Source of the DNA: an uncultured Acidobacteriota bacterium
Lineage (GTDB): Bacteria > Acidobacteriota > Thermoanaerobaculia > UBA5066
DNA length: 64,000 nucleotides
Assembly (NCBI GenBank): GCA_963798215.1
Contig: CAWCSP010000004.1
Coordinates: forward strand, 6,751 to 70,750
Direction: 5' to 3'
Part shown: positions 6,727-50,646 of the stretch, in pieces
Position numbering within the stretch: the stretch's first letter is position 1
Layout of the letters: each line of letters opens with the position of its first letter
Translations under genes and position numbers: made by a program
Notes under the pieces: generated by a model
What the model was told of the DNA's origin: nothing
The model's database searches: none
What the model saw: the letters and a program-made list of their open reading frames with translations, nothing else

Positions 6727-6792
6727 CATGGATCTGCTCTTCATCATCCTCGGCATCCTCGCCGCCTGGAGGGGCGGCGGCGGCGGAAACTA
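6727..6792 (+). CDS. candidate small hydrophobic peptide (21 aa, MDLLFIILGILAAWRGGGGGN)
   Basis: Perfect SD aaggagga lies 6 nt upstream of the ATG. One TM-like helix then a Gly5 tail. Preceded by inverted repeats (ttgccttgc...gcaaggcaa). Confidence 0.35.
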
Positions 6793-6895: not shown

Positions 6896-6985
6896 GGTGA
6901 GGTGCTGGAGTGGTTGATCAGGACGGTCTCGAAAACCGTTTTACCCGAAAGGGTAACGTGGGTTCGAATCCCACCCTCACCGCCA
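6896..6985 (+). tRNA. tRNA-Ser (anticodon CGA)
   Basis: Acceptor ggtgagg/cctcacc. Anticodon stem acggt/accgt with loop ctCGAaa. Long variable arm tacccgaaagggta. Same T-arm as the other Ser tRNA. CCA encoded. Confidence 0.9.
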
Positions 6986-13599: not shown

Positions 13600-13735
13600 T
13601 CCCTCGGGCCCCCGGATGAGTTCGGGTCCCGCGCGACGGTCCCCTCCGAACCGTGTCAGGTCCGGAAGGAAGCAGCACTCAGGAGCAAGGCCCGGGCGCC
13701 GCGGATCGCCCGGACTCATCGGGGGGCTCGGGGGT
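13600..13735 (+). ncRNA. ffs: signal recognition particle RNA (4.5S/ffs)
   Basis: Contains the conserved domain IV motif gtcaggtccggaaggaagcagc. The 5' and 3' ends pair (ccctcgggcccccggatgagt / actcatcggggggctcggggg). A T-run follows, a TAGAAT -10-like box sits at 13589-13594, and the gene lies directly upstream of dnaX, which is the usual position. Confidence 0.75.
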
Positions 13736-37903: not shown

Positions 37904-38500
37904 ATGAAGGTCGCATTCATCGGCACGCACGGGGTCGGGAAGACGACGCTCTGTTACGACCTGGCGGCCGCCCTCAAGAAGAGAGACCTGACCGTCGAGA
38001 TCGTCCGGGAGGTCGCGCGGGAGTGCCCGCTCCCGATCAACCAGGAGACGACGCTCAAGGCCCAGGCCTGGATCCTCCACACCCAGATCGCCTGGGAGCT
38101 CCAGGCCGAGGCGAAGGCCGATGTGGTGTTCTGCGACCGCGCGGTCCTCGACAACTACTGCTACATGAAGCGTGCGTTCTCGGGGGCGCCCGAGGAACCG
38201 GTGCTCGAGAGCCTCGTCAGGAGCTGGACGCGGACGTACGACGGGCTTTTCAAGGTTCCGATCGTCGGCGACCCGCACTTCGACGGCGTGCGCGACACGG
38301 ACCTCGCCTTCCAGCACGAGATCGACCGCTCGATCCAGCAGACGCTTGCCGCGTGGAACGTACCGCACGTCGCGCTCGACCCGGCGCGGCGCGCCGAATG
38401 GTCCGCCCACGTCCTCGACACCCTGCTCCCGCGTCTCAAGCCGCAGGAGCTCCTGTTCCCGGAGCTCGACAAACCGCTCAACGGCGTCCGCGCCGGCTGA
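37904..38500 (+). CDS. P-loop NTPase (AAA_28/NadR-like nucleoside kinase domain)
   Basis: Walker A GTHGVGKTT. 198 aa. Confidence 0.7.
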   Translation: MKVAFIGTHGVGKTTLCYDLAAALKKRDLTVEIVREVARECPLPINQETTLKAQAWILHTQIAWELQAEAKADVVFCDRAVLDNYCYMKRAFSGAPEEPVLESLVRSWTRTYDGLFKVPIVGDPHFDGVRDTDLAFQHEIDRSIQQTLAAWNVPHVALDPARRAEWSAHVLDTLLPRLKPQELLFPELDKPLNGVRAG

Positions 38501-38509
38501 GGAGGCCTC

Positions 38510-39427
38510 ATGGAAGACTTCGAACGCCGCCGCTTCTTCGAAACGCTCGCCACGACGCCGCAGACGCTCAAGGCCTCGCTCAAGGGCCTCTCGAAGAAGG
38601 TCCTTCTCTGGACGCCTGCCCCGGGGAAATGGTCGATCCTCGAGATCCTCTGCCACATGCGCGACATGGAGCGCGAGGCCTACATCGAGCGCTACACGCG
38701 CATCCTCTCTGAGGACGAGCCGAAGCTGCCGGACCTGAACGGCGAGGCGTTCGCAATTCTGCGCGCCTACCGCAGCCAGAAGGCGCCCGAGGTCGTGCGC
38801 GAGTGGGTCGCGCTGCGACGCCAGACACTCCAGCTCCTGCGAAAGACCGGAAAGGCTCAGTGGGCGCGCGCGGGCGTTCACGCGACGGCCGGCCGGCTCA
38901 CGATGGAAGACCTGATCCAGCGGCACGCCGTCGGCAACGACACGGCGCATCTCGGGCAGATCGAGGCGATCAAGCGGCGTTTCGCCGTCCTCGAGCGCCT
39001 TGCCGCCGCCCCCGCGGCGCTCGCCGCGGCGCTCAAGGGCGCGCCGGACGACGTGCTCCGGCGCAAGGCAGACGGCGGAAAGTGGTCGATGGTCGAGAAC
39101 GCCGCGCACGTCCGCGACATCGAGCGCGTCTACCAGGGCCGCTTCACGCAGATGGCGTTCGGCGACAAGCCGGCGTTCTGGATGCTCGACAACGACGCCG
39201 CCGCGACGGCGCTCAAGTACGCCGAGGCCGACCCCGCCGAGGTCGCCAAGGAGTTCAAGCGCCTGCGGGAGGATTCCATCGCCCTCCTGCGCGCGCTCCC
39301 GCACGAGGCGTGGGAGAAGACCGGAATCCACCCGGAGAAGGGCGAGATCACCGTCGAGCAGCTCGCCGTCCGCCTCGCCGACCACACCGACGCCCATCTC
39401 GGACGGATCAAAAGCCTCAGAGGTTAA
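38510..39427 (+). CDS. DinB/YfiT-like (DinB_2) protein, internally duplicated
   Basis: Two repeats carrying the conserved His (WSILEILCHMRDME and WSMVENAAHVRDIE). Confidence 0.7.
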   Translation: MEDFERRRFFETLATTPQTLKASLKGLSKKVLLWTPAPGKWSILEILCHMRDMEREAYIERYTRILSEDEPKLPDLNGEAFAILRAYRSQKAPEVVREWVALRRQTLQLLRKTGKAQWARAGVHATAGRLTMEDLIQRHAVGNDTAHLGQIEAIKRRFAVLERLAAAPAALAAALKGAPDDVLRRKADGGKWSMVENAAHVRDIERVYQGRFTQMAFGDKPAFWMLDNDAAATALKYAEADPAEVAKEFKRLREDSIALLRALPHEAWEKTGIHPEKGEITVEQLAVRLADHTDAHLGRIKSLRG

Positions 39428-39466
39428 GAGCTCGAGCCCTTGCTAAGAAATCTCTTCTCTTCGTTC

Positions 39467-39494
39467 TTGACAAATCAAGTTTCGTTGATACATT
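39467..39494 (+). promoter_or_regulatory. sigma70-like promoter (TTGACA-16-TACATT) overlapping a small palindrome, upstream of arsM
   Basis: The AT-rich 100-bp intergenic region is unusual for this genome. TTGACA at 39467, TACATT at 39489. Inverted repeat CTTGA-caaa-TCAAG at 39466-39479 is flanked by ttcgtt direct repeats. Confidence 0.4.
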
Positions 39495-39525
39495 AGGGGC
39501 GTGGTTGATCGGTAAGGAGCGTCCC

Positions 39526-40353
39526 ATGGGGGAGACCGGCATCAAGGACATCAAGGACACGGTCAAGGAGCGCTACGCGGCCGCGGCGCTCCGGGCCACG
39601 AAGGGCGGAAACGCGTGCTGCGGCGGCGCGTCGGCGATCGCCGGCGCGAAGGATCCCATCACGTCCGACCTCTACGGCGCCGACCAGACGCTCGGCCTCC
39701 CGGCGGCCGCCGTCCAGGCGTCCCTCGGCTGCGGCAACCCGACGGCGCTCGCCGAGCTGCGCGAGGGGCAGACGGTCCTCGACCTCGGCTCGGGCGGCGG
39801 GATCGACGTCCTTCTTTCGGCGCGGCGCGTCGGCGAGAGCGGAAAGGTCTACGGCCTCGACATGACCGACGAGATGCTCGCGCTCGCGCGCGAGAACCAG
39901 CGCGTTGCGAAGGTCACGAACGTCGAGTTCCTGAAGGGCGAGCTCGAGCACGTGCCGCTGCCGGACGGCGTCGTCGACGTCATCATCTCGAACTGCGTCG
40001 TGAACCTCTCGGCCGACAAGGATCGCGCGCTCGCCGAAGCGTTCCGCGTCCTCAAGCCGGGCGGCCGCTTCGCGGTGTCCGACGTCGTCGTGCGCGGCGA
40101 GGTCCCGGCGGACGTGCGGAAGAACGTCGAGCTTTGGATCGGCTGCCTCGCGGGCGCGATGGAGGAGAAGGAGTTCGAGGCGCGCCTGAAGAAGGCGGGC
40201 TTCACGGACGTCTCGATCACGCCGACGCGGATCTACACGATCGACGACGCGCGCGACTTTCTCTCGGCCGGGGGTATCGACGCCGACGCGCTGGTCCCGC
40301 AGGTCGAGGGCAGGTTCATGAGCGCGTTCGTGAGGGCGATGAAGCCCGCGTGA
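39526..40353 (+). CDS. arsM: arsenite (metalloid) S-adenosylmethionine methyltransferase ArsM family
   Basis: AAGGAG RBS. SAM motif VLDLGSGGGID. Conserved Cys positions (NACCGG, LGCGNP, WIGCLAGA) as in ArsM. Confidence 0.8.
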   Translation: MGETGIKDIKDTVKERYAAAALRATKGGNACCGGASAIAGAKDPITSDLYGADQTLGLPAAAVQASLGCGNPTALAELREGQTVLDLGSGGGIDVLLSARRVGESGKVYGLDMTDEMLALARENQRVAKVTNVEFLKGELEHVPLPDGVVDVIISNCVVNLSADKDRALAEAFRVLKPGGRFAVSDVVVRGEVPADVRKNVELWIGCLAGAMEEKEFEARLKKAGFTDVSITPTRIYTIDDARDFLSAGGIDADALVPQVEGRFMSAFVRAMKPA

Positions 40354-40462
40354 ACCGCGCCGAGGAGGTCGATCCGGTGTTTCCGACGCCCCGGGAATAG
40401 ACCCGCGGCCGGGGTTCATTCACGGGGGCGGTGATCGACCTCGTGCCACAATCGAAGGGCCC

Positions 40463-41161
40463 GTGCTGAATCCCGGAGGCGCCCGCCGCTGTGTCCTTCT
40501 CTTCGCACGGTCCCCGCGCGCCGAGGCGGCGGCCAAGGGGATCCGCGGGGGCGAGGAGCTCTTCCGGCTCGCGCGCGAGCGCGTCGTCGAGGCCGTCGCG
40601 GCGCTGCCCGGAGTCGACCTCGTCCCCGTCCCGCCGGCGTTCCAGCGCGGGCGGAGCTTCGGGGAGAGGCTGGAACGGGCGCTCGCGGATTCGGTGAGAT
40701 CGGGCTACCGGCAGCTCGTCGTGGTCCCGGGCGACGTGCCGGAACTGTCCGCGGACGACCTCGGCGCCGCGTTCGACGCCCTCGCGTCGCGGGACGTCGT
40801 GCTGGGTCCGGCGCGGGACGGAGGCGTCTGGCTGATCGGCTTCCATGCGGGTCGGATCCCGCCTCGAAGCCTCCTTCGGGAGGTCCCGTGGCGGACCCCG
40901 GGCGTCTTCGAGGCGCTTCTCGGCAATGCCGCGGACGCGGCCGTCCTCGGCCTTCGGAGCGACGTGAACGACCGGCGGGGCGGCGCGCGCGCCCTCGCCG
41001 CGGCCCGCGAATCCCGGGACGCGGCCCTCGTCGTCGTCCTCGCCGCCCTCCTCGGCTCACGGGTCGTAATCCGCGGCGTCGCCGCGCCGCGTGGAGCGCC
41101 TGCGCCCCGGCCCGCCCCGAACTCCTGCCGCGCGCCGCCGTTCTCCTCACCCGCCGCCTGA
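40463..41161 (+). CDS. DUF2064 / CofC-like nucleotidyltransferase-fold transferase (recalled as the rSAM/selenodomain-associated transferase family)
   Basis: MobA/CofC-like N-terminus (VLLFARSP...GYRQLVVVPGDVPELSADDL...GPARDGGVWLIG). Confidence 0.6.
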   Translation: MLNPGGARRCVLLFARSPRAEAAAKGIRGGEELFRLARERVVEAVAALPGVDLVPVPPAFQRGRSFGERLERALADSVRSGYRQLVVVPGDVPELSADDLGAAFDALASRDVVLGPARDGGVWLIGFHAGRIPPRSLLREVPWRTPGVFEALLGNAADAAVLGLRSDVNDRRGGARALAAARESRDAALVVVLAALLGSRVVIRGVAAPRGAPAPRPAPNSCRAPPFSSPAA

Positions 41162-41212
41162 GAGAACCGGCCGCCTCCTGCGGAAACCCGCAGCGAAACG
41201 AAGGAGAAGTCC

Positions 41213-42226
41213 ATGTTCCGCTTCGCGCGCACGATCGCGTCGCTCGCCCTCGTCTCGTCCGCAGCGTTCGCTTCGGACCGCGTCGTCATCCAGTACGACT
41301 GCATCCCGAACTACGCGAACTGGGGCGGCGTGACCGCGCTGTACCTCAAGGTCGCCGGCGTCACGGTGCCGCCCGATCCGAAAGGCTCCTCCGTCGCGAT
41401 GGCGGCTCTCGAAAAGGAGAAGGACGCACCGGTCGCGGATTGCGCGTATTACTCCGGCGCGATCGGCTTTCAGGCGGCGCAGAAGGGACTGCACCAGCCG
41501 TACAAGCCGAAAGGCTGGGAGAAGATCCCCGCCGCACTCAAGGACCCTTCCGGACTGTGGTGGACGGTCCACACGGCGACGATCGCCTTCGTCGTGAACA
41601 CGCAGGCGCTCGGCGGGGCGCCCGTCCCGAGGTCGTGGGCGGACCTCCTGAAGCCCGAGTACAAGGGGAAGATCGCGTACGACGACCCGACGTGGGGCGG
41701 AACGTCCTTCACGCTCGTCTACGGGATCAACGAGCTGATGGGAGGCAGCGCGACGGACTTCGCTCCGGGTCTCGCGTACCTCAAGAAGCTCGACGCGAAC
41801 GTCTCGTCGTACCCGCGCGAGTCGATCTACAACGCGGTGCTGAGGGGCGAGATCCCGGTCTGGATCAACGCGGACGGGAACGGCTACAAGATGAGGTACG
41901 TCGACGGCGGGACGGTCGACGTCGTCCTTCCCGCGGAGGGCACGTTCACGATGCCCCTCGTGATGGGTCTCGCGAAGGGAGCCCCGCACGCGGCGGAGGC
42001 GAAGGCGTACTTCGACTGGCTGCTCACCGCCGAGGCGCAGGCGGAGTTCGCGAAGTCGTTCTTCCGCCCGGTGGTTTCCGGGGCTCTCCCCGCCGGCCTC
42101 GCCGCGAAGTTCCTCCCCGACGTCGAATACCGCCGGGCGCGGGATCTCGACCTCGCGAAGATGGCGGGGGCGGCGGACGCGCTGAAGAAGGCGTGGCGGG
42201 ATGCGATCCGGGGCTCGGGCCGCTAG
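41213..42226 (+). CDS. ABC transporter periplasmic substrate-binding protein (Fe3+/polyamine/thiamine/2-AEP-type PBP2 family)
   Basis: Signal peptide. Type 2 SBP fold motifs. Confidence 0.85.
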   Translation: MFRFARTIASLALVSSAAFASDRVVIQYDCIPNYANWGGVTALYLKVAGVTVPPDPKGSSVAMAALEKEKDAPVADCAYYSGAIGFQAAQKGLHQPYKPKGWEKIPAALKDPSGLWWTVHTATIAFVVNTQALGGAPVPRSWADLLKPEYKGKIAYDDPTWGGTSFTLVYGINELMGGSATDFAPGLAYLKKLDANVSSYPRESIYNAVLRGEIPVWINADGNGYKMRYVDGGTVDVVLPAEGTFTMPLVMGLAKGAPHAAEAKAYFDWLLTAEAQAEFAKSFFRPVVSGALPAGLAAKFLPDVEYRRARDLDLAKMAGAADALKKAWRDAIRGSGR

Positions 42227-43028
42227 CGTGCGGCCGGGTCGCGTCCCCGGGACGGGAGCGCTTCTCGCCCTGCCGCTCGCGCTCTTCCTCGGCCTGTGCA
42301 TCCTGTGGCCGCTGGCCGCTCTCGCGAGCTCCGCGCTCGCGACCCCGGGCGCCTTCACGCAGGTGCTCGCGGCCGGACGCTACCGGACGGCCCTCGTGAA
42401 CTCGCTCGGACTCTCGCTTGCGGCCTCGGCGACCGCCGTCGCGGCGGCGATCCTGCCGGCGTGGGTATTCGCCCGCGAGCGTTTTCGCGGGCGCGACGCC
42501 CTGCGCGCGGCCGTCTCGCTCCCGCTGACCTTCTCGGGCGTCCTCGTCGGCTTTCTCGTCGTCGTGATGCTGGGGCGCGCCGGCGCCGTCCCGAAGCTCC
42601 TCGGGGCTCTCACGGGGCACGAGCTCCTGTCGGGCTCGGCGTTCACGCTGACCGGGCTCTTCGCCGCGTATCTCTACTTCGAGATCCCGCGCGCCGTCAT
42701 GACGCTCGAGGCCGCGTTCCGCCGGTTTCCGGCTGAGCTGGATGCGGCGGCGCGCGTCCTGGGCGCGGGGCCTCTCGCCCGGCTCTTCCGGGTCGTGCTG
42801 CCGCTCGCGGCTCCGGCTCTGAGGTCGACGCTCGCGATCACGTTCTCGGCCTCGATGGGCTCCTTCGGTGCCGCGCTCATCCTGGCGCGGAGATTCACCG
42901 TGGCGCCGGTCGAGGTCTACACCGAGCTGACGGCGTTTCTGAATGACGCCGTTGCCGGCGCGCTCTGCGTCGCCCTCGCGGTCCTCACGCTCGGCGTCGA
43001 TCGCCTCCTCGCCCGGAGGGCGGCGTGA
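42201..43028 (+). CDS. ABC transporter permease (PotB/FbpB-like)
   Basis: 6 TM helices. EAA loop LGAGPLARLFRVVLPLAAPAL. An alternative GTG start lies at 42228. Confidence 0.8.
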   Translation: MRSGARAASVRPGRVPGTGALLALPLALFLGLCILWPLAALASSALATPGAFTQVLAAGRYRTALVNSLGLSLAASATAVAAAILPAWVFARERFRGRDALRAAVSLPLTFSGVLVGFLVVVMLGRAGAVPKLLGALTGHELLSGSAFTLTGLFAAYLYFEIPRAVMTLEAAFRRFPAELDAAARVLGAGPLARLFRVVLPLAAPALRSTLAITFSASMGSFGAALILARRFTVAPVEVYTELTAFLNDAVAGALCVALAVLTLGVDRLLARRAA

Positions 43029-43825
43029 AATCCCGGACCCGCCGCGCCGCCCGCGCCGCCGGCATCGCGCTCGCGGCGGGCCTCGCGGCCGTGCTCGTCG
43101 CGCCGATCGCGGTGACGGTCGGGGGCGCGTTCCTCGACCTGCGCTGGTACGGCCCGCGGTCGGAAGGCATCGCCGGCGTGGCGGCCTCCTTCCGGTACGT
43201 GCTGGGGATCTGGTCCGGGGCGCTCCTCACGTCGGCGAAGCTCGTCGCGTCGGTCGTCCCCCTCGCGCTCGCGATCGGCGCGCCCGCCGCGTTCGCGTTC
43301 CGGCGCCGCCCGTTCCCGCTCGCGCGGCTCCTCGAGGCCGCCGCGCTGACGCCGCTGTCCGTGCCCGGCATCGCCCTCGCCGTCGGTCTTCTCGCGGCGG
43401 CGCCGCGCGCGCCGCGCCTTGGCCTCCTCGTCGCGGGACACCTCGCGTACGCGCTGCCGCTCGTCCTGAAGACGGTCGGGAACGCGCTCGAGAACGAGGA
43501 TCCGCGCCTCGAGGCGGCGGCGCGCTCGCTCGGCGCCGGGCCCTTTCGGACGGCGCTCTGGGTGACGATCCCCAGGCTCGCGCCGGCCCTCGTTCTCTCG
43601 TCGCTTCTCGTCTTCGCCGTTTCGTGGGGCGAGTTCAACGTCAGCTTTCTCCTCGCGACGCCCCTTCGACAGACGTTTCCGGCCGCGCTCTACATGACGT
43701 ACACGACGAACTCCTTCCCGGTCGCCGCCGCGGCGACGGTCGTCTTCCTCCTCCCCGTCGTGCCCGCGCTCCTCGCGATCCAGGCGCTCGGCGGCGACGA
43801 ATTCCGGCGAGGCCTCTCGTCGTGA
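43025..43825 (+). CDS. ABC transporter permease (second subunit)
   Basis: EAA loop SLGAGPFRTALWVTIPRLAPAL. GTG start overlapping the upstream stop. Confidence 0.85.
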   Translation: MKSRTRRAARAAGIALAAGLAAVLVAPIAVTVGGAFLDLRWYGPRSEGIAGVAASFRYVLGIWSGALLTSAKLVASVVPLALAIGAPAAFAFRRRPFPLARLLEAAALTPLSVPGIALAVGLLAAAPRAPRLGLLVAGHLAYALPLVLKTVGNALENEDPRLEAAARSLGAGPFRTALWVTIPRLAPALVLSSLLVFAVSWGEFNVSFLLATPLRQTFPAALYMTYTTNSFPVAAAATVVFLLPVVPALLAIQALGGDEFRRGLSS

Positions 43826-44862
43826 AGCTCGAGGTCCGCGGGCTGACGAAGTCGTACCGGCCGGGTCCGCCGGCCGTCGACGCCGTCAGTCACGGATTCG
43901 CCGCGGGCCGGATCACGTCGATCCTCGGACCGAGCGGGTCCGGCAAGAGCACGCTCCTCTGGATGATCGCCGGCCTCGCGGATCCCGACGCGGGCCGCGT
44001 CCTGTGCGACGAATCGGACGTCACGGACGTTCCCGCCGAGAAGCGCGACGTCGGGCTCGTCTTCCAGAGCTACGCGCTCTTTCCCCACCTCACGGTTCTC
44101 GAGAACGTCGCGTTCGGCCCGCGGGCGCGCGGCGCCTCGAAGGCCGAGCGGACGGCCCGGGCGCGCGAGGCGCTCGCGACGGTCCGGATGTCCGCGCTCG
44201 AAGACCGCCGGATCGAGGCGCTCTCGGGGGGCGAACAGCAGCGCGTCGCCCTCGCGCGGGCGCTCGCGTGCCGTCCGCGCGTCCTGCTCCTCGACGAGCC
44301 GCTCTCCGCGCTCGACGCACAGCTGCGTGAGGAGCTGCGCGGCGAGCTGTCCGTGCTCCTGAGGAGCCTCGCGCTCACGACGCTTTACGTGACGCACGAC
44401 CAGGAAGAGGCGCTGTCCCTCGGGGACGAGCTCCTCGTCCTGCGCAACGGGCGCGTCGAGCAGGCCGGCACACCGGCGGACGTGTACCGCCGGCCGGCGA
44501 ACGCGTTCGTCGCCCGTTTCCTCGGCGCCGCGAACCTCGTCCGCGCCACGGCGGCTCCCGGCGGGCGGGAGCTGCGCCTTCCGTTCGCGACGCTCCCGGC
44601 GGCGGCTCCCGTCCGCCCGGGGCCGTGCTGGGTCATGCTGCGCCCGGAGGACCTCGAGGTCGTGCGGCCGGGTGAGGGGGACTTCACGGCGTCGCTCGAG
44701 ACCTCGGTGTTTCGGGGGCCGGCCCGGCGCCTCCGCGTGGTCGCGGAAGGCGAGGCGCTCGCCGTCGACGCCCCGAACGACCTCGACGTCCGGGAGGGAG
44801 ACGACGTTTCGCTGCGCGTGAGGCGCGAGAAGATCTCCGTCTTCCCGGAGGAAACCGGATGA
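43822..44862 (+). CDS. ABC transporter ATP-binding protein with C-terminal TOBE domain (PotA/FbpC-like)
   Basis: Walker A GPSGSGKST. Signature LSGGEQQRVALARAL. Walker B LLLDEPLSALD. Confidence 0.9.
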   Translation: MKLEVRGLTKSYRPGPPAVDAVSHGFAAGRITSILGPSGSGKSTLLWMIAGLADPDAGRVLCDESDVTDVPAEKRDVGLVFQSYALFPHLTVLENVAFGPRARGASKAERTARAREALATVRMSALEDRRIEALSGGEQQRVALARALACRPRVLLLDEPLSALDAQLREELRGELSVLLRSLALTTLYVTHDQEEALSLGDELLVLRNGRVEQAGTPADVYRRPANAFVARFLGAANLVRATAAPGGRELRLPFATLPAAAPVRPGPCWVMLRPEDLEVVRPGEGDFTASLETSVFRGPARRLRVVAEGEALAVDAPNDLDVREGDDVSLRVRREKISVFPEETG

Positions 44863-45728
44863 ACGACCGCCCCTTTCCCGAAGCGCCGCTCGCCGCTCTG
44901 GACACCGTGTGGATCCAGGTCGCGGGGACGCTGTGCAACCTCGCGTGCACGCACTGCTTCATCTCGTGCTCGCCGACGAACGATGCGCACGGGATGATGC
45001 CGCTCGCGGACGTGGTTCGCGTCCTCGACGAGGCCGAGCGGCTCGGCGCAAAGGAGTATTACCTCACGGGAGGCGAGCCGTTCCTGAACCGCGACATCCT
45101 CCCGATCCTCGAGGCGGCGCTCGCGAAGGGGCCCGTCTCCGTCCTCACGAACGGCGTCCTCATCCGGCCCGAGACGGCAGCGCGCCTGAAGGCTCTCTCG
45201 GATGGCTCGGAGTACAGCCTCGACCTGCGCGTTTCGATCGACGGGTGGGACGCGGCGACGAACGACGCCGTGCGCGGCGTGGGGACGTTCGACCGCATCC
45301 TCGCGGGCGTGCGGCACCTGGCGGCGGCCGGTCTCAACCCCGTGATCACGGTGACGGAAGTGCTCGACGGCGCGGGGACGCGCGAGGGCCGCGCGCGCTT
45401 TCTCGCGTTCCTCCGGGAGATCGGCCTCGCCCAGCCGCGGCTGAAAATCCTGCCGCTCCTCAGGCTCGGGGCGGAGGAAAAGCGTCTCCGGCCCTACGCC
45501 GAATTCGAGACGCTCGAAGGAAGGTCGCTGACACCTGAAGACCTCGCGGCGCTTCAGTGCACGAGCTCGCGCATGGTCACGTCGAAGGGCGCGTACGTCT
45601 GCCCGATCCTCATCGACGTGGACGACGCGCGAATGGGGGAGACGCTCTCCGACACGCTCCGGCCGTTCACGCTCCGGCATCGGGCGTGTTACACGTGTCA
45701 GGAATATGGCCTCAGTTGCAGGACGTGA
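44859..45728 (+). CDS. radical SAM enzyme with Cys-rich C-terminal tail (recalled as the TIGR04167-like rSAM/Cys-rich family)
   Basis: CX3CX2C (CNLACTHC). C-terminal CPILID...CYTCQEYGLSC cluster. Translationally coupled to the ABC ATPase. Confidence 0.8.
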   Translation: MNDRPFPEAPLAALDTVWIQVAGTLCNLACTHCFISCSPTNDAHGMMPLADVVRVLDEAERLGAKEYYLTGGEPFLNRDILPILEAALAKGPVSVLTNGVLIRPETAARLKALSDGSEYSLDLRVSIDGWDAATNDAVRGVGTFDRILAGVRHLAAAGLNPVITVTEVLDGAGTREGRARFLAFLREIGLAQPRLKILPLLRLGAEEKRLRPYAEFETLEGRSLTPEDLAALQCTSSRMVTSKGAYVCPILIDVDDARMGETLSDTLRPFTLRHRACYTCQEYGLSCRT

Positions 45729-45761
45729 GGCTCTTGTCATGCAGCATTTCTTAGAAAGTGA

Positions 45762-46604
45762 ATGCGACCCCGCGGCGGGCGCGGCGGAGCGGGTTCTGTG
45801 AAAACCGTGGAGCTTGGGACCTTTCGAAGGATCGCGCTCTTCGGAGGGATCTATTCGAACTATCTGTCGCTCCTGAGCGCCATCTCGCTCGCCCGTGCGC
45901 GCAACGTCGACGCGATCGTCGCGCTCGGTGACTTCGGCGCGTTCGGGCCGCACCCGGACCGCGCCGTCGAGATCCTGCGTGAGGCGCGGATTCCCGCGAT
46001 CCGGGGCAACTACGAGGAGTCGCTCTCGTCGTCCGCAGATGACTGCGCCTGCGGCTACACCGACCCGCGCGACAACGCGTTCGCGCAGGTCTCGTACGAC
46101 TACACGCGCGAGAAGACGTCCGCGGAGCACAAGGCGTGGATGGGGACGCTGCCGTCGCACGCGCGGCTGACGGTCGCGGGACGGAAGGTCCTCCTCTGTC
46201 ACGGCTCGCCGCGGGCCGTCAACGAATTCCTCTGGGAGACAGCGACGCCGCGCGCTTTCATCGGCCGCCTTCTCGACGCGCACGGCACCGACGTGATCGC
46301 CTGCACGCACACGGGCCTCCACTGGGCACGGTTTCTCGCGCCGGGGCGCGGCCTCGTGAACGCCGGCGTGCTCGGAAGGCCGGCGAACGACGGGCACACG
46401 AACGTGTGGTTCACGATCCTCGAGGAGCGGGGGGGAACGCTCGCGACGGAGTTCGTCCCCGTCGACTACGACCACGCGCGCCTCGCGCGCGAGATGCGCG
46501 AGGAGAAGCTCCCCGCCGAGTTCGTCGAGACGATCGAGACGGGCTGGTGGACGACGTGTCTCGAGGTCCTGCCCGCCAAGGAGCGCGCGCGCGGGCGGTT
46601 CTGA
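45762..46604 (+). CDS. calcineurin-like metallophosphoesterase (YfcE/MJ0936-like)
   Basis: GDxG...GNYE...GHTH-type motifs (ALGDFGAFG, RGNYEE, CTHTG). The true start may be an internal GTG. Confidence 0.75.
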   Translation: MRPRGGRGGAGSVKTVELGTFRRIALFGGIYSNYLSLLSAISLARARNVDAIVALGDFGAFGPHPDRAVEILREARIPAIRGNYEESLSSSADDCACGYTDPRDNAFAQVSYDYTREKTSAEHKAWMGTLPSHARLTVAGRKVLLCHGSPRAVNEFLWETATPRAFIGRLLDAHGTDVIACTHTGLHWARFLAPGRGLVNAGVLGRPANDGHTNVWFTILEERGGTLATEFVPVDYDHARLAREMREEKLPAEFVETIETGWWTTCLEVLPAKERARGRF

Positions 46605-46619: not shown

Positions 46620-47255
46620 TCAGCGCCCTTCGAGAGGGATCAGGACCTCGTTCCTCCGGAGGAACCACGGCGTCCACGGCGGGTTGTATCGGGCGAAGAC
46701 GGGCGGCTCAGGGGCGGGCTCGAGCCCGGCGGCCTTCGCGTCGGATGCGAGCTCTCGCGCGACGTCTTCGAATCTCTCCACGCCCCATGTGCCCGAAAAG
46801 CGCACGGCGGCGACCCGTCTCGCGGGGACCTCGCGCAGGCGGACGCGCGCGTCGTCGGGGACCGGCAGCGTCCTCATCGTGAAGGACGCGGGCATCGTGA
46901 ACGTCACGGTCCAGCCGTCCGTCGACCTCTCGGCGCCGACGGGCGCCGTCATCGCGATCTTAGTTCCCCGCGCACCCCGAACCGGCTCGGCGCCGACGGG
47001 CGCGGTCATCGCGATCTTCCGGCCGCCGTCGTTCGCGCCGAAGATGTAGCCCGCGAGGCGGCGGAAGCCCTCGTTCGTCCCGTCTCCGAACGCCCCCGTC
47101 ACGACCGTCTCGGCGACGACCGTGTTCTTGTAGACGCGGACCTCGAACGATCCGTAATCCTTTTCAATGCGATACTCCGGTTCCTCGACGGCCATGGCGG
47201 CTCCTGCCGCCCCGAGCAGGACGAATCCGATCGGGGCGAAACGCGAAAGCGTCAT
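46620..47255 (-). CDS. SOUL heme-binding family protein, secreted
   Basis: Signal peptide MTLSRFAPIGFVLLGAAGAAMA. SOUL motifs YEVRxY-like (FEVRVYKN). Confidence 0.7.
   Translation of the reverse strand: MTLSRFAPIGFVLLGAAGAAMAVEEPEYRIEKDYGSFEVRVYKNTVVAETVVTGAFGDGTNEGFRRLAGYIFGANDGGRKIAMTAPVGAEPVRGARGTKIAMTAPVGAERSTDGWTVTFTMPASFTMRTLPVPDDARVRLREVPARRVAAVRFSGTWGVERFEDVARELASDAKAAGLEPAPEPPVFARYNPPWTPWFLRRNEVLIPLEGR
46929..47018. repeat. 33-bp near-identical direct repeat at 57-bp spacing inside the SOUL gene (in-frame 19-aa tandem duplication)
   Basis: ctcggcgccgacgggcgcCgtcatcgcgatctt at 46929 and ...cgcGgtcatc... at 46986. The encoded KIAMTAPVGAE is repeated. Confidence 0.5.
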
Positions 47256-47372
47256 GCCGTCTTTACGCCGGCAGGCCACCCTCCGGTTTGGCCGTGAAAC
47301 TTTTCGGCGCGAACTGCGTCTTCTCTAGGCAAGCAGGCCCTCAGGGGCCGGACGAAAGGGGATCCGGGAGTC

Positions 47373-49675: not shown

Positions 49676-50248
49676 ATGGACGCTGTCCGCTCCGGCTCTC
49701 TCGTCCAGCTCGACCTCTTCGACGACGACGCGCCGCCTCCCGAGGAGGACCGCGCCGGCGAGCGCGACCTCCAGGCGCGCTACGACGCGCTCGCAAAGGC
49801 GCACGGCCTTCCGCCCGCGCGCGTGATCCTGTCGGGTCGCCGCGCGACGGGCGGCGTCATCCAGTACGGGACATGCGGGGAACCGCACGTGATCCGCGTC
49901 TCGAGCCACATGGGCCCGGACGACCGGCTCCAGACGCTCCTCCACGAGACCGCGCACGCGATCTGCGCCTCGCGCTGGGGCGCGGAGGAAGGGCACTCGC
50001 CGCGCTTCTGGGCCGTGGCCCGCGAGCTCGGCGTCGTGCGCACGGCCGCGCCCGAGACGGAGCGCCTGCGCCGGGTCCGCGAGAGCAACGCGCGCTACGC
50101 GTACCGCTGCCCGGGCTGCGCGGCCGAGTGGACGCGCCGGACGGCGTTCGGCCGCGCGCGCCTGTGCGCCGCGTGCGAGCGGGCGGGCCGCCCGGCGCGG
50201 CTCGTCCTCGTGCGGCGCCCGAAACCGGCGCGCGGAGACCGGGCGTGA
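49676..50248 (+). CDS. SprT-like zinc metallopeptidase domain protein with C-terminal zinc ribbon
   Basis: HETAHA (HExxH) and CPGC...CAAC. Confidence 0.7.
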   Translation: MDAVRSGSLVQLDLFDDDAPPPEEDRAGERDLQARYDALAKAHGLPPARVILSGRRATGGVIQYGTCGEPHVIRVSSHMGPDDRLQTLLHETAHAICASRWGAEEGHSPRFWAVARELGVVRTAAPETERLRRVRESNARYAYRCPGCAAEWTRRTAFGRARLCAACERAGRPARLVLVRRPKPARGDRA

Positions 50249-50646
50249 GGCGAACGCGATTTCTCGCGGCGGCCCTCGCGGCCGCGGCGGCGCTGCTCCT
50301 TGCGGCCGCGGCGTTCGCCGCGGGCCGGCCGTCGCTCGAGTGCTACTTCCAGACGACGCTGAGGGACCCGGCCTACCAGAAGCGGACGTACGACAAGGTC
50401 GCCGCGAAGTGGAAGTCGCCGCCCGCCGCCGAGGTGCCCCCGGTCGGGAAGAAGACGGTCGTCCAGGCCGTCATCGCGAAGGACGGCACGCTCGCGACGA
50501 CGGAGGTCTCGATGTCGTCGGGCAAGAAGGGCTGGGACGCGGCCGCGGTCGCCGCCGTGAAGGCCGCCGCGCCGTTCGACCCGCTGCCGGCCGGGTTCGC
50601 CTACCCGTCCGTGCAGGTCCACTTTCACGTCGCCGTCGTGCCGTAG
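50245..50646 (+). CDS. secreted TonB C-terminal-like domain protein
   Basis: Signal peptide. About 100-aa C-terminal domain resembling TonB_C. GTG overlapping the upstream stop. Confidence 0.5.
   Translation: MRRTRFLAAALAAAAALLLAAAAFAAGRPSLECYFQTTLRDPAYQKRTYDKVAAKWKSPPAAEVPPVGKKTVVQAVIAKDGTLATTEVSMSSGKKGWDAAAVAAVKAAAPFDPLPAGFAYPSVQVHFHVAVVP

Follow-up and report, generated by a model that had tools for sequence, protein, structure and literature searches.

An operon of an uncultured Acidobacteriota bacterium that joins an ArsM methyltransferase to an unnamed radical SAM and phosphoesterase-like pair: a candidate variant of the ArsS-type organoarsenical pathway

On contig CAWCSP010000004.1 of an uncultured Acidobacteriota bacterium (assembly GCA_963798215.1; Thermoanaerobaculia, UBA5066), a stretch of 64,000 nucleotides (nt; positions 6,751 to 70,750, in the following called the window) contains eight consecutive genes on the + strand (39526-46604), which were delimited by codon-usage gene calling and a list of open reading frames. 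In this order they encode an As(III) S-adenosylmethionine methyltransferase (ArsM), a DUF2064 transferase, the periplasmic substrate-binding protein (SBP), two permeases and the ATPase of an ATP-binding cassette (ABC) importer, an enzyme of the radical S-adenosylmethionine (SAM) type (rSAM), and a degenerate protein of the metallophosphoesterase type (MPE; Table 1). The junctions between them measure +109, +51, -26 (or +1), -4, -4, -4, and +33 nt. A previous annotation of the same DNA, made from the letters alone (the earlier note), had described eight same-strand genes with gaps of 0–110 nt and several overlaps, which is correct, as these spacings demonstrate. From the gene layout, co-transcription of all eight genes is inferred. 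Comparison with known protein families shows the operon to couple a genuine ArsM to a conserved rSAM–MPE pair, a TIGR04282-like transferase, and an importer of the organophosphate class, and we consider it probable, at roughly 60%, that the operon encodes a variant of the ArsS-like organoarsenical pathway.

Table 1. Genes and promoter of the ArsM–rSAM–MPE operon and its immediate neighbors (window coordinates)
Feature	Position	Strand	Length (aa)	Family or remark
AAA_28	37904-38500	+		upstream syntenic neighbor, given as context; operon membership not claimed
Double DinB_2/MST-like protein	38510-39427	+		upstream syntenic neighbor, given as context; operon membership not claimed
Sigma70-like promoter, TTGACA-16 nt-TACATT	39467-39494	+		sole match in the window, at its lowest-GC spot
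ArsM, As(III) S-adenosylmethionine methyltransferase	39526-40353	+	275	NF008823
DUF2064/CofC-like nucleotidyl- or glycosyltransferase fold, TIGR04282-like	40463-41161	+	232	PF09837
Periplasmic substrate-binding protein (SBP)	41213-42226	+	337	SBP_bac_6; N-terminal hydrophobic leader, signal peptide-like
ABC permease 1	42201 (or 42228)-43028	+		BPD_transp_1; overlaps or abuts the SBP gene
ABC permease 2	43025-43825	+		BPD_transp_1; 4-nt overlap with preceding gene
ABC ATPase with C-terminal TOBE domain	43822-44862	+		ABC_tran + TOBE_2; 4-nt overlaps on both sides
rSAM	44859-45728	+	289	CX3CX2C and Cys-rich C-terminus; unnamed family
Degenerate calcineurin-fold 'metallophosphoesterase' (MPE)	45762 (alternative start 45798)-46604	+	280	Metallophos_2
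SOUL haem-binding protein	46620-47279	-		next gene, convergent with the operon

The window has a G+C content of about 70%, and its lowest-GC 80-nt stretch (40%) begins at 39416. The promoter-like sequence found there is the only one in the entire window, on either strand, to match the sigma70 consensus in 10/12 positions or more, in agreement with the previous proposal that the operon is driven from the only AT-rich promoter-like region. Its spacer includes the palindrome ATCAA-N6-TTGAT (39474-39489). The syntenic counterpart of the operon used for comparison, locus L001, is about 75% identical to the window at the nucleotide level over 17 kb, and the promoter of the window shares 35 of 39 bases with the arsR promoter of L001, as far as the GTG start of arsR. 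In L001, arsR sits between the DinB gene and arsM; in the window, the sequence after the promoter joins directly onto that which precedes arsM in L001, leaving an arsR-type promoter and palindrome, yet no arsR. No ArsR is encoded in the whole 64 kb. We assume that the operon was probably under ArsR control formerly, and since the window holds no ArsR gene, it may now be expressed constitutively or be controlled in trans. The comparison of 39428-39525 with L001:3960-4400 shows that arsR is cleanly gone, and a TCGT(T/C)GATACAT-like repeat common to both L001 regions could have provided a route for its deletion. A scan identified no intrinsic terminator between the operon genes; the single terminator-like match lies inside the DUF2064 gene, and shuffled sequences yield more such matches. 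Likewise, Rfam detected no riboswitch or other RNA element within the operon. A second local AT-rich spot (45684-45763, 47% GC) is located at the junction of the rSAM and MPE genes, which are 33 nt apart here and overlap by about 13 nt in most relatives; an internal transcription start or a translation signal at this spot is possible.

By profile scores and active-site cysteines, the first gene product is a genuine ArsM of the generic short type, as had been proposed previously. It reaches 351 bits on NF008823/PRK11873 (cutoff 263) and at most 72 bits on UbiE models, its best PDB matches are the ArsM structures 5evj and 4fr0, and the As(III)-binding cysteines (equivalents of C44, C72, C174, and C224 of CmArsM) are present. 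These occur in the motifs ACCGG (the N-terminal CC pair), GCGNP, SNCVVNLS, and GCLAGA, the last three of which align with 5evj. A generic UbiE/COQ5 identity is ruled out by the same scores and cysteines. With 85% nucleotide identity to L001, arsM is also the best conserved gene of the operon.

Neither NCBIfam nor Pfam has a name for the rSAM or the MPE family, and PGAP labels their members 'radical SAM protein' and 'metallophosphoesterase family protein'; a literature search, outside of which most subscription journals fell, retrieved no publication describing an rSAM–MPE family. The rSAM contains the cysteines of the CX3CX2C motif (C26/C30/C33) and five invariant cysteines at the C-terminus (C234, C248, C277, C280, and C287). 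Its predicted fold (pLDDT 82) is that of a SPASM/twitch-type rSAM; no SPASM domain was detected by Pfam at E-values up to 10 in 17 family members. Its nearest solved relatives are enzymes with nucleotide or peptide substrates. Metagenomes yielded more than 5,000 relatives, of which the best 120 share 68–90% identity with the rSAM and are labeled 'radical SAM protein' or MoaA-like.

To our knowledge, ArsS and ArsL are the only rSAM enzymes known to build carbon–arsenic (C–As) bonds. Our rSAM belongs to neither of the two. On the ArsS model TIGR04167 it scores 48.5 bits (cutoff 300), with a match confined to the rSAM core (residues 14-158), and the Roseomonas and Deferribacter relatives discussed below score 60–64 bits; moreover, it lacks the DUF3641 (PF12345) domain carried by all ArsS homologs, is shorter than ArsS (about 330–360 aa), and is only about 25% identical to it. 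Nevertheless, hhalign relates the rSAM family to cyanobacterial ArsS with 97.6% probability (E 4.5e-12; 218 columns, columns 20-246), and in a multiple alignment of the family with genuine ArsS proteins eight of eight cysteines coincide. The C-terminal ones suggest the ArsS-type pattern C-X13/14-C ... C-X2-C-X6/7-C at the protein end, although the tail alone is not significantly similar (E 0.1). Like the ArsM–ArsS systems of Synechocystis and other cyanobacteria, the operon combines ArsM with an rSAM (in other genomes fused to it) that has an N-terminal CX3CX2C motif and five C-terminal cysteines in the same order. As cited in the literature, ArsS adenosylates DMAs(III), the trivalent dimethylated arsenical, to 5'-deoxy-5'-dimethylarsinoyl-adenosine (DDMAA). 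ArsL and ArsM of the arsinothricin operon arsQML of Burkholderia gladioli likewise represent an rSAM and an ArsM-family enzyme that build an organoarsenical within an ars operon. However, ArsL has 428 aa and its CX3CX2C motif at residues 194-201 (PMC8552651), as opposed to residues 26-33 in our smaller rSAM; no ArsQ permease accompanies the latter, and ArsL is not among the best 25 of the 58 NCBIfam families that match it, so an identity as ArsL was rejected.

The MPE matches the Pfam families PF12850 (Metallophos_2; 38.6 bits, gathering threshold 27) and PF00149 (25.7 bits, gathering threshold 21.5), and no curated NCBIfam family; TIGR04168 gave no match for any protein, the neighbor of ArsS in B. 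thailandensis described below included, and its model is apparently absent from the library. Its motif I reads G-G-I-Y-S-N in place of D-x-H (S-D-V-H-A-N in 3rqz) and its motif III GNY(E) in place of the canonical GNH. Both changes (GG-x-Y-S-N and GNY) are invariant across 78 family members, so that the family lacks D-x-H (I) and G-N-H-D/E (III), the metal-ligand motifs of canonical members. An invariant D-C-x-C-G-Y insert comes next. In ArsR, As(III) is bound by a site of this C-x-C kind. A protein of matching make-up occurs beside a canonical ArsS: in Burkholderia thailandensis, the gene immediately following that of ArsS specifies a 339-aa 'hypothetical protein' that is 27% identical to the MPE over 263 aa (BLAST, 48 bits; E 1.2e-5 by tblastn against the window) and shares GGxYxN, GD, GN.E, CxC, HG, and H. 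The signature GGxYxN, GN.E, and CxC is shared by the MPE of the window, its Roseomonas homolog, and this B. thailandensis protein (45798-46604, L085:11107-11940, and L089:8936-9955 were compared). Since the B. thailandensis neighbor carries the signature, distant counterparts of rSAM and MPE adjoin in at least one canonical ArsS system, and this comparison, which comprises that one example, suggests that the rSAM–MPE pair diverged as a unit.

The DUF2064 protein fits PF09837 (77.6 bits, gathering threshold 25.8), matches the PDB structure 3cgx, and has kept the motifs GD.P and GP..DGG.WLIG. With 78.5 bits it stays below the cutoff (134) of TIGR04282 and is not a member of this family; its counterpart in locus L003 scores 90.5. 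Within the operon, its gene evolves fastest (68% nucleotide identity to L001). The earlier note had taken transferase, rSAM, and MPE for members of a TIGRFAM trio including TIGR04167 and TIGR04282. As the scores of rSAM and transferase fall short of the curated cutoffs and the MPE has no curated match, this trio is absent as such, and the operon carries a diverged relative of it, a sister set. Nor can the trio be regarded as a selenodomain-associated set apart from ArsS, since NCBIfam now gives TIGR04167 the name ArsS.

The importer had previously been assigned to the PotABC/FbpABC type. Its SBP is closer to organophosphate binders of the AfuA/PhnS type than to PotD or FbpA, the nearest solved structures being 5t1p, 8x1a, AfuA (4r72), the pyridoxal 5'-phosphate (PLP) binder P5PA (6wce), and a putative 2-aminoethylphosphonate (2-AEP) binder (4r6y). 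AfuA we take to be a sugar-phosphate binder. From the structures of AfuA, P5PA, and the putative 2-AEP binder, we therefore place the importer in the organophosphate/phosphonate class. It shares with AfuABC and PhnSTUV the set of an SBP, two permeases, and a TOBE-domain ATPase, as well as an SBP whose best structural relatives presumably bind sugar phosphates, PLP, or 2-AEP. In contrast to these systems, its genes sit between those of the DUF2064 protein and the rSAM, and its scores are far below the equivalog cutoffs: 115 (cutoff 310) and 102 (cutoff 395) for the SBP on PhnS models, 314 (cutoff 458) for the ATPase, which also resembles PotA below cutoff besides PhnT2, and at most 77 (cutoffs 247–593) for the permeases. 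Membership in the PhnS, PhnT, PhnU, or PhnV equivalogs for 2-AEP was accordingly rejected.

The distribution of the module was followed with the rSAM. When one genome from each species was scanned, at least 579 loci were obtained, the best 80 of which stem mostly from Acidobacteriota or Thermoanaerobaculia; 84 loci were gene-called and clustered, and neighbor counts refer to the 80 loci in which the rSAM was called (L001–L083 and the window). The MPE adjoins the rSAM in 73 of these 80 loci, and by this conservation the two form the core of a module that has no name yet. Further neighbors are a Pyr_redox_3 flavoprotein (58/80), of which a PDB search matched only the Rossmann N-terminus of YpdA/Bdr, a 110-aa CMD/AhpD-like protein (40/80), the DUF2064 protein (35/80; joined to the rSAM in a single fusion protein), thioredoxin (18/80), the AfuA/PhnS-like importer (9/80), and an ArsM-family gene (5/80, plus L082). 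None of the 80 loci contained an LMWP-type ArsC motif. The exact order of eight genes is restricted to one Thermoanaerobaculia sub-lineage (the window, L001, and L093/L094). The proposal that DUF2064, rSAM, and MPE form a conserved set therefore holds for the rSAM–MPE pair and, in part, for the DUF2064 protein, apart from the TIGRFAM membership; ArsM leads the module in this sub-lineage, and a position of ArsM next to the module is a minority arrangement overall (five to six of the 80 loci).

Importer and flavoprotein/AhpD-like pair exclude each other: the pair occurs in none of the nine importer loci and in 59 of the 71 others (Fisher p = 1.3e-6, a value that overstates the case, because the nine loci may lack phylogenetic independence). 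Six importer-type (or importer-fragment) loci also encode a phosphate-selective porin O/P, usually directly before the SBP gene. In six loci a GNAT is found between or beside rSAM and MPE; its best match, with weak similarity (45.7 bits, cutoff 142), is an aminoalkylphosphonate N-acetyltransferase, and hence PhnO-like. On a Roseomonas plasmid (L085), the genes for a TIGR04282 protein (named so by PGAP), a DUF547 protein, and a 460-aa rSAM are followed by a family rSAM (35% identity), PhnD, PhnE, and an ATPase, and an MPE (31% identity). This PhnDEC is a second, unrelated phosphonate-class importer that was recruited to the module.

Such importers would also suit a salvage or breakdown pathway. 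An organo-arsenical or organophosphonate would then be taken up and its C–As or carbon–phosphorus (C–P) bond cleaved by the rSAM in a PhnJ-like manner, while ArsM would detoxify released or co-imported As(III), and transferase and phosphoesterase would handle ribosyl and phosphate intermediates. The independent recruitment of two importers, the porin beside the SBP, and the PhnO-like GNAT are consistent with this route, and the combination of transferase, rSAM, phosphoesterase, and importer recalls the logic of the C–P lyase pathway (PhnI/J/P). The likeness to C–P lyase (PhnCDE, PhnI/G/H/L, PhnJ, PhnM, PhnP, and PhnO) is organizational only, consisting of an importer, a ribosyl or nucleotidyl transfer, an rSAM-type step, and a phosphodiesterase, and extends to the true PhnD/PhnE importer in Roseomonas and the GNAT loci. 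However, the 25 top NCBIfam matches per operon protein, a list that is not exhaustive for four of the proteins, contain no family of PhnG–M, including PhnJ, only sub-threshold PhnS/T/U/V-type matches of the importer. Furthermore, 71 of the 80 loci have no importer, the phosphoesterase lacks the metal ligands of motif I, and the rSAM::ArsM fusions and the cassettes with TIGR04282/TIGR04283 glycosyltransferases described below point to building rather than degrading. We therefore regard salvage as unlikely.

A link of the module to metalloid chemistry, already suspected in the earlier note, is backed by ars operon contexts, by fusions, and by accessory genes of ArsS cassettes. On the contig P0006, an rSAM 78% identical to that of the window stands in the order DinB–ArsR–ArsM–LMWPc(ArsC)–rSAM–MPE. 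The ArsR of L001 contains a CVC motif as well as CC at its C-terminus; by analogy to the R773 ArsR repressor, we take CVC to be its As(III)-binding motif. In four acidobacterial loci (L062, L067, L077, and L082), the pair is flanked in varying positions by a second ArsM subtype, which is closest to the arsinothricin-type ArsM model (325–342 bits, cutoff 500). A profile search with the rSAM through 1.84 billion representative sequences retrieved 173 family representatives at E-values of 1e-30 or below, among them continuous rSAM::ArsM proteins from Brocadiales/Planctomycetota (P0254) and from a RefSeq genome of Deferribacter thermophilus (P0353/P0396, WP_423302845.1; L097:8001-10022). On NF008823, the ArsM domains of these fusions reach 237 and 193 bits, and they possess all ArsM cysteines. 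Pyr_redox_3, DUF2064, and thioredoxin were also found fused to the rSAM (Pyr_redox_3::rSAM, DUF2064::rSAM, thioredoxin::rSAM; P0247, P0261, P0360, and P0274).

The surroundings of these genes resemble those of ArsS. Canonical ArsS cassettes have the order MerA-like–ArsM–TVP38–ArsS in Pseudanabaena, ArsS–TIGR04282 in Thiodictyon, and TIGR04283...ArsS with DUF547 in Hymenobacter, and in B. thailandensis they comprise, besides the MPE-like protein, a 463-aa rSAM, DUF547, an MTA phosphorylase, and TIGR04283. In Deferribacter (L097), the fusion protein takes its place in a cassette of DUF547–rSAM::ArsM–VTT–MerA-like reductase–TIGR04282::TIGR04283, both halves of the latter fusion scoring above the curated cutoffs (215 bits for TIGR04282). 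Beside the rSAM, L009 encodes a true TIGR04282 (205 bits) together with a TVP38 sharing 56% identity with that of Pseudanabaena, L056 a true TIGR04283 (225 bits), and L016 a 460-aa rSAM, a MerA-like protein, DUF547, and a sterol-desaturase-like protein. The AhpD-like partner nearly attains the cutoff of TIGR04169, 'arsenosugar-associated peroxidase-like' (112.8 vs 120). Across genomes, the module and the ArsM–ArsS systems thus have in common TIGR04282/DUF2064, TIGR04283, AhpD-like, DUF547, VTT/TVP38, and MerA-like proteins, a TrsS-like 460-aa rSAM, thioredoxin, and an MPE-like partner with matching degenerate motifs and CxC. The genomic partnership typical of ArsS, with ArsM and TIGR04282/TIGR04283, recurs in the window, L001, P0006, the fusions, L097, L009, and L056. 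In other bacteria, the rSAM–MPE module is thus found where arsenosugar-type cassettes have ArsS, or its rSAM is fused to ArsM. By context, the module appears to work like ArsM–ArsS, yet it fails the tests for membership in ArsS. A difference lies in the Pyr_redox_3 flavoprotein, which often accompanies the mainly acidobacterial rSAM family and is lacking in the canonical ArsS cassettes examined.

The same pathway might act on selenium, tellurium, or antimony as its physiological substrate. ArsM-family enzymes also methylate selenium and tellurium, and selenoproteins occur among the related families of ArsS, TrsS, and AhpD-like proteins. On the other hand, sister operons contain the ArsR with the CVC motif and an LMWPc gene of the arsenate reductase type, and no selenocysteine and no selD/ybbB context were seen in the loci examined, although no systematic search for them was made. 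Furthermore, ArsS is an experimentally established arsenic enzyme, as cited in PMC13598754 and PMC12159101. Hence, another element is very unlikely to be the main substrate.

Taking these results together, the following ArsS-like route can be proposed. ArsM would convert As(III) to methylated trivalent arsenicals, and the rSAM, by analogy with ArsS, would form a further C–As bond by adding to the arsenic a radical derived from SAM, in all likelihood 5'-deoxyadenosyl. The DUF2064 transferase may process the nucleoside or sugar-phosphate part, and the CxC-bearing MPE could either bind and present the arsenical or hydrolyze a phosphoester intermediate. The ABC importer, assisted in sister loci by the phosphate-selective porin, would bring in a phosphate-like anion, be it an arsonate or an organophosphate acceptor or precursor, and might stand in for the flavoprotein/AhpD-like pair of most other genomes. 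There, flavoprotein, AhpD-like protein, and thioredoxin may constitute a dedicated reductase or thiol relay, an idea that fits the fusion of flavoprotein and thioredoxin to the rSAM. The product would be an arsenosugar-type or related organoarsenical and need not be the cyanobacterial one.

Several observations weigh against an ArsS-like route. Among curated rSAM families, the Rv1681 type (100 bits), ScmF (82), and MftC (72) are nearer to our rSAM than ArsS is, and DUF3641 is missing from it and from the 17 family members even at Pfam E-values up to 10. As the Cys-rich tail aligned alone to the ArsS tail by hhalign is not significant (E 0.1), the likeness of the tails is suggestive only, and we claim no homology to DUF3641. 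The window encodes no TIGR04283, DUF547, VTT, or MerA-like protein in its 64 kb, so that a full arsenosugar route is not encoded there, and synthesis may end at an early intermediate or diverge from there. Compared with arsenosugar cassettes, the window is without a glycosyltransferase 2, DUF547, and VTT, and has an additional complete ABC importer; the CMD, Pyr_redox_3, and 460-aa rSAM genes seen elsewhere do not occur in its 64 kb either. That accessory families bear 'arsenosugar' in their names is in turn a matter of annotation by association. About 74 of the 80 loci have no ArsM within about eight genes, and an ArsR-like gene is present in only two of the 80. In the closest relative examined (L090/L091, P0002; rSAM 89% identical), DinB is directly followed by rSAM–MPE, with no ArsM, no DUF2064, and no importer of the present type. 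Finally, the 109-nt spacer between the ArsM and DUF2064 genes could have room for a second transcription start.

Part of this evidence would agree with a looser relationship, in which ArsM is an ordinary detoxification gene upstream of an unrelated DUF2064–ABC–rSAM–MPE unit whose substrate is no arsenical but, for instance, an organophosphate, a lipid head group, or a cofactor linked to a nucleotide. ArsM adjoins the pair in only five to six of 80 loci, the spacer mentioned is the widest gap of the operon, and the nearest solved rSAM relatives work on nucleotides or peptides. The site downstream of AAA_28–DinB has variable content as well, being occupied by rSAM–MPE alone, by ArsR–ArsM–LMWPc(ArsC)–rSAM–MPE, or by the ArsM–DUF2064–ABC version. 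But the spacer contains neither a terminator nor a second promoter-like site, and it folds no better than shuffled sequences (z = -0.24), with no unusual fold elsewhere in the operon. Moreover, ArsM has become associated with the pair independently, in different positions and with two subtypes, it is covalently fused to the rSAM in two further phyla, and the module has accessory genes in common with ArsS cassettes. An incidental neighborhood of ArsM is therefore improbable, and the ArsS-like organoarsenical pathway remains the reading that we prefer. The core idea of the earlier note, an organo-metalloid operon, is thereby upheld, with its family assignments, the prominence given to ArsM, and the type of importer corrected.

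More tentatively, the rSAM–MPE pair, abundant in soil Acidobacteriota and present with the rSAM fused to ArsM in anammox Brocadiales and Deferribacter, might represent a third C–As-forming rSAM family after ArsS and ArsL, whose product is neither the cyanobacterial arsenosugar nor arsinothricin, with the MPE serving as an As-binding CxC substrate carrier devoid of a catalytic metal site and the importer feeding an external arsonate- or phosphate-like precursor; this extended version we consider possible but doubtful. Arsenic methylation and organoarsenical formation in soil bear on food safety, for instance in rice. An rSAM family that is tied to ArsM by operon, fusion, and equivalence to ArsS in cassettes, and that is present in a dominant soil phylum, indicates an unrecognized and widespread route to organic arsenic, and current surveys of arsenic genes may overlook a whole class of producers. 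It could also be instructive on arsenic handling with regard to the CxC-bearing MPE, the choice between importer and flavoprotein/AhpD-like pair, and an arsR-type promoter without arsR.

The neighborhood of the module shows additional features. The AAA_28 and DinB genes precede it also in L001, L090/L091, L093/L094, and the P0006 contig. On the opposite strand, L090/L091 encode an SBP_bac_11/Phosphonate-bd protein, an ABC-2 permease, an ATPase, two proteins of the amino acid kinase family, and a methyltransferase. In a group of loci (L013–L015, L019, L025, L030, L034, L036, L038, L045, and L047), the module is followed by genes for HlyD-like, ABC ATPase, and MacB-like permease proteins as well as for an unannotated protein of about 874 aa, which possibly form an exporter; many of these loci have a gene for a ZnuA-like binding protein upstream together with syntenic unannotated neighbors, which may reflect lineage synteny only. 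Just past the operon, the SOUL gene of the window is an addition relative to the syntenic L001, and a peptidase M14 gene of L001 (L001:15138-16973) is absent from the window at about 50226-50264. Elsewhere on the + strand and unrelated to the operon, the window contains a bacterial small SRP RNA (13620-13718, 67 bits) and two tRNA genes (2818-2904 and 6896-6982).

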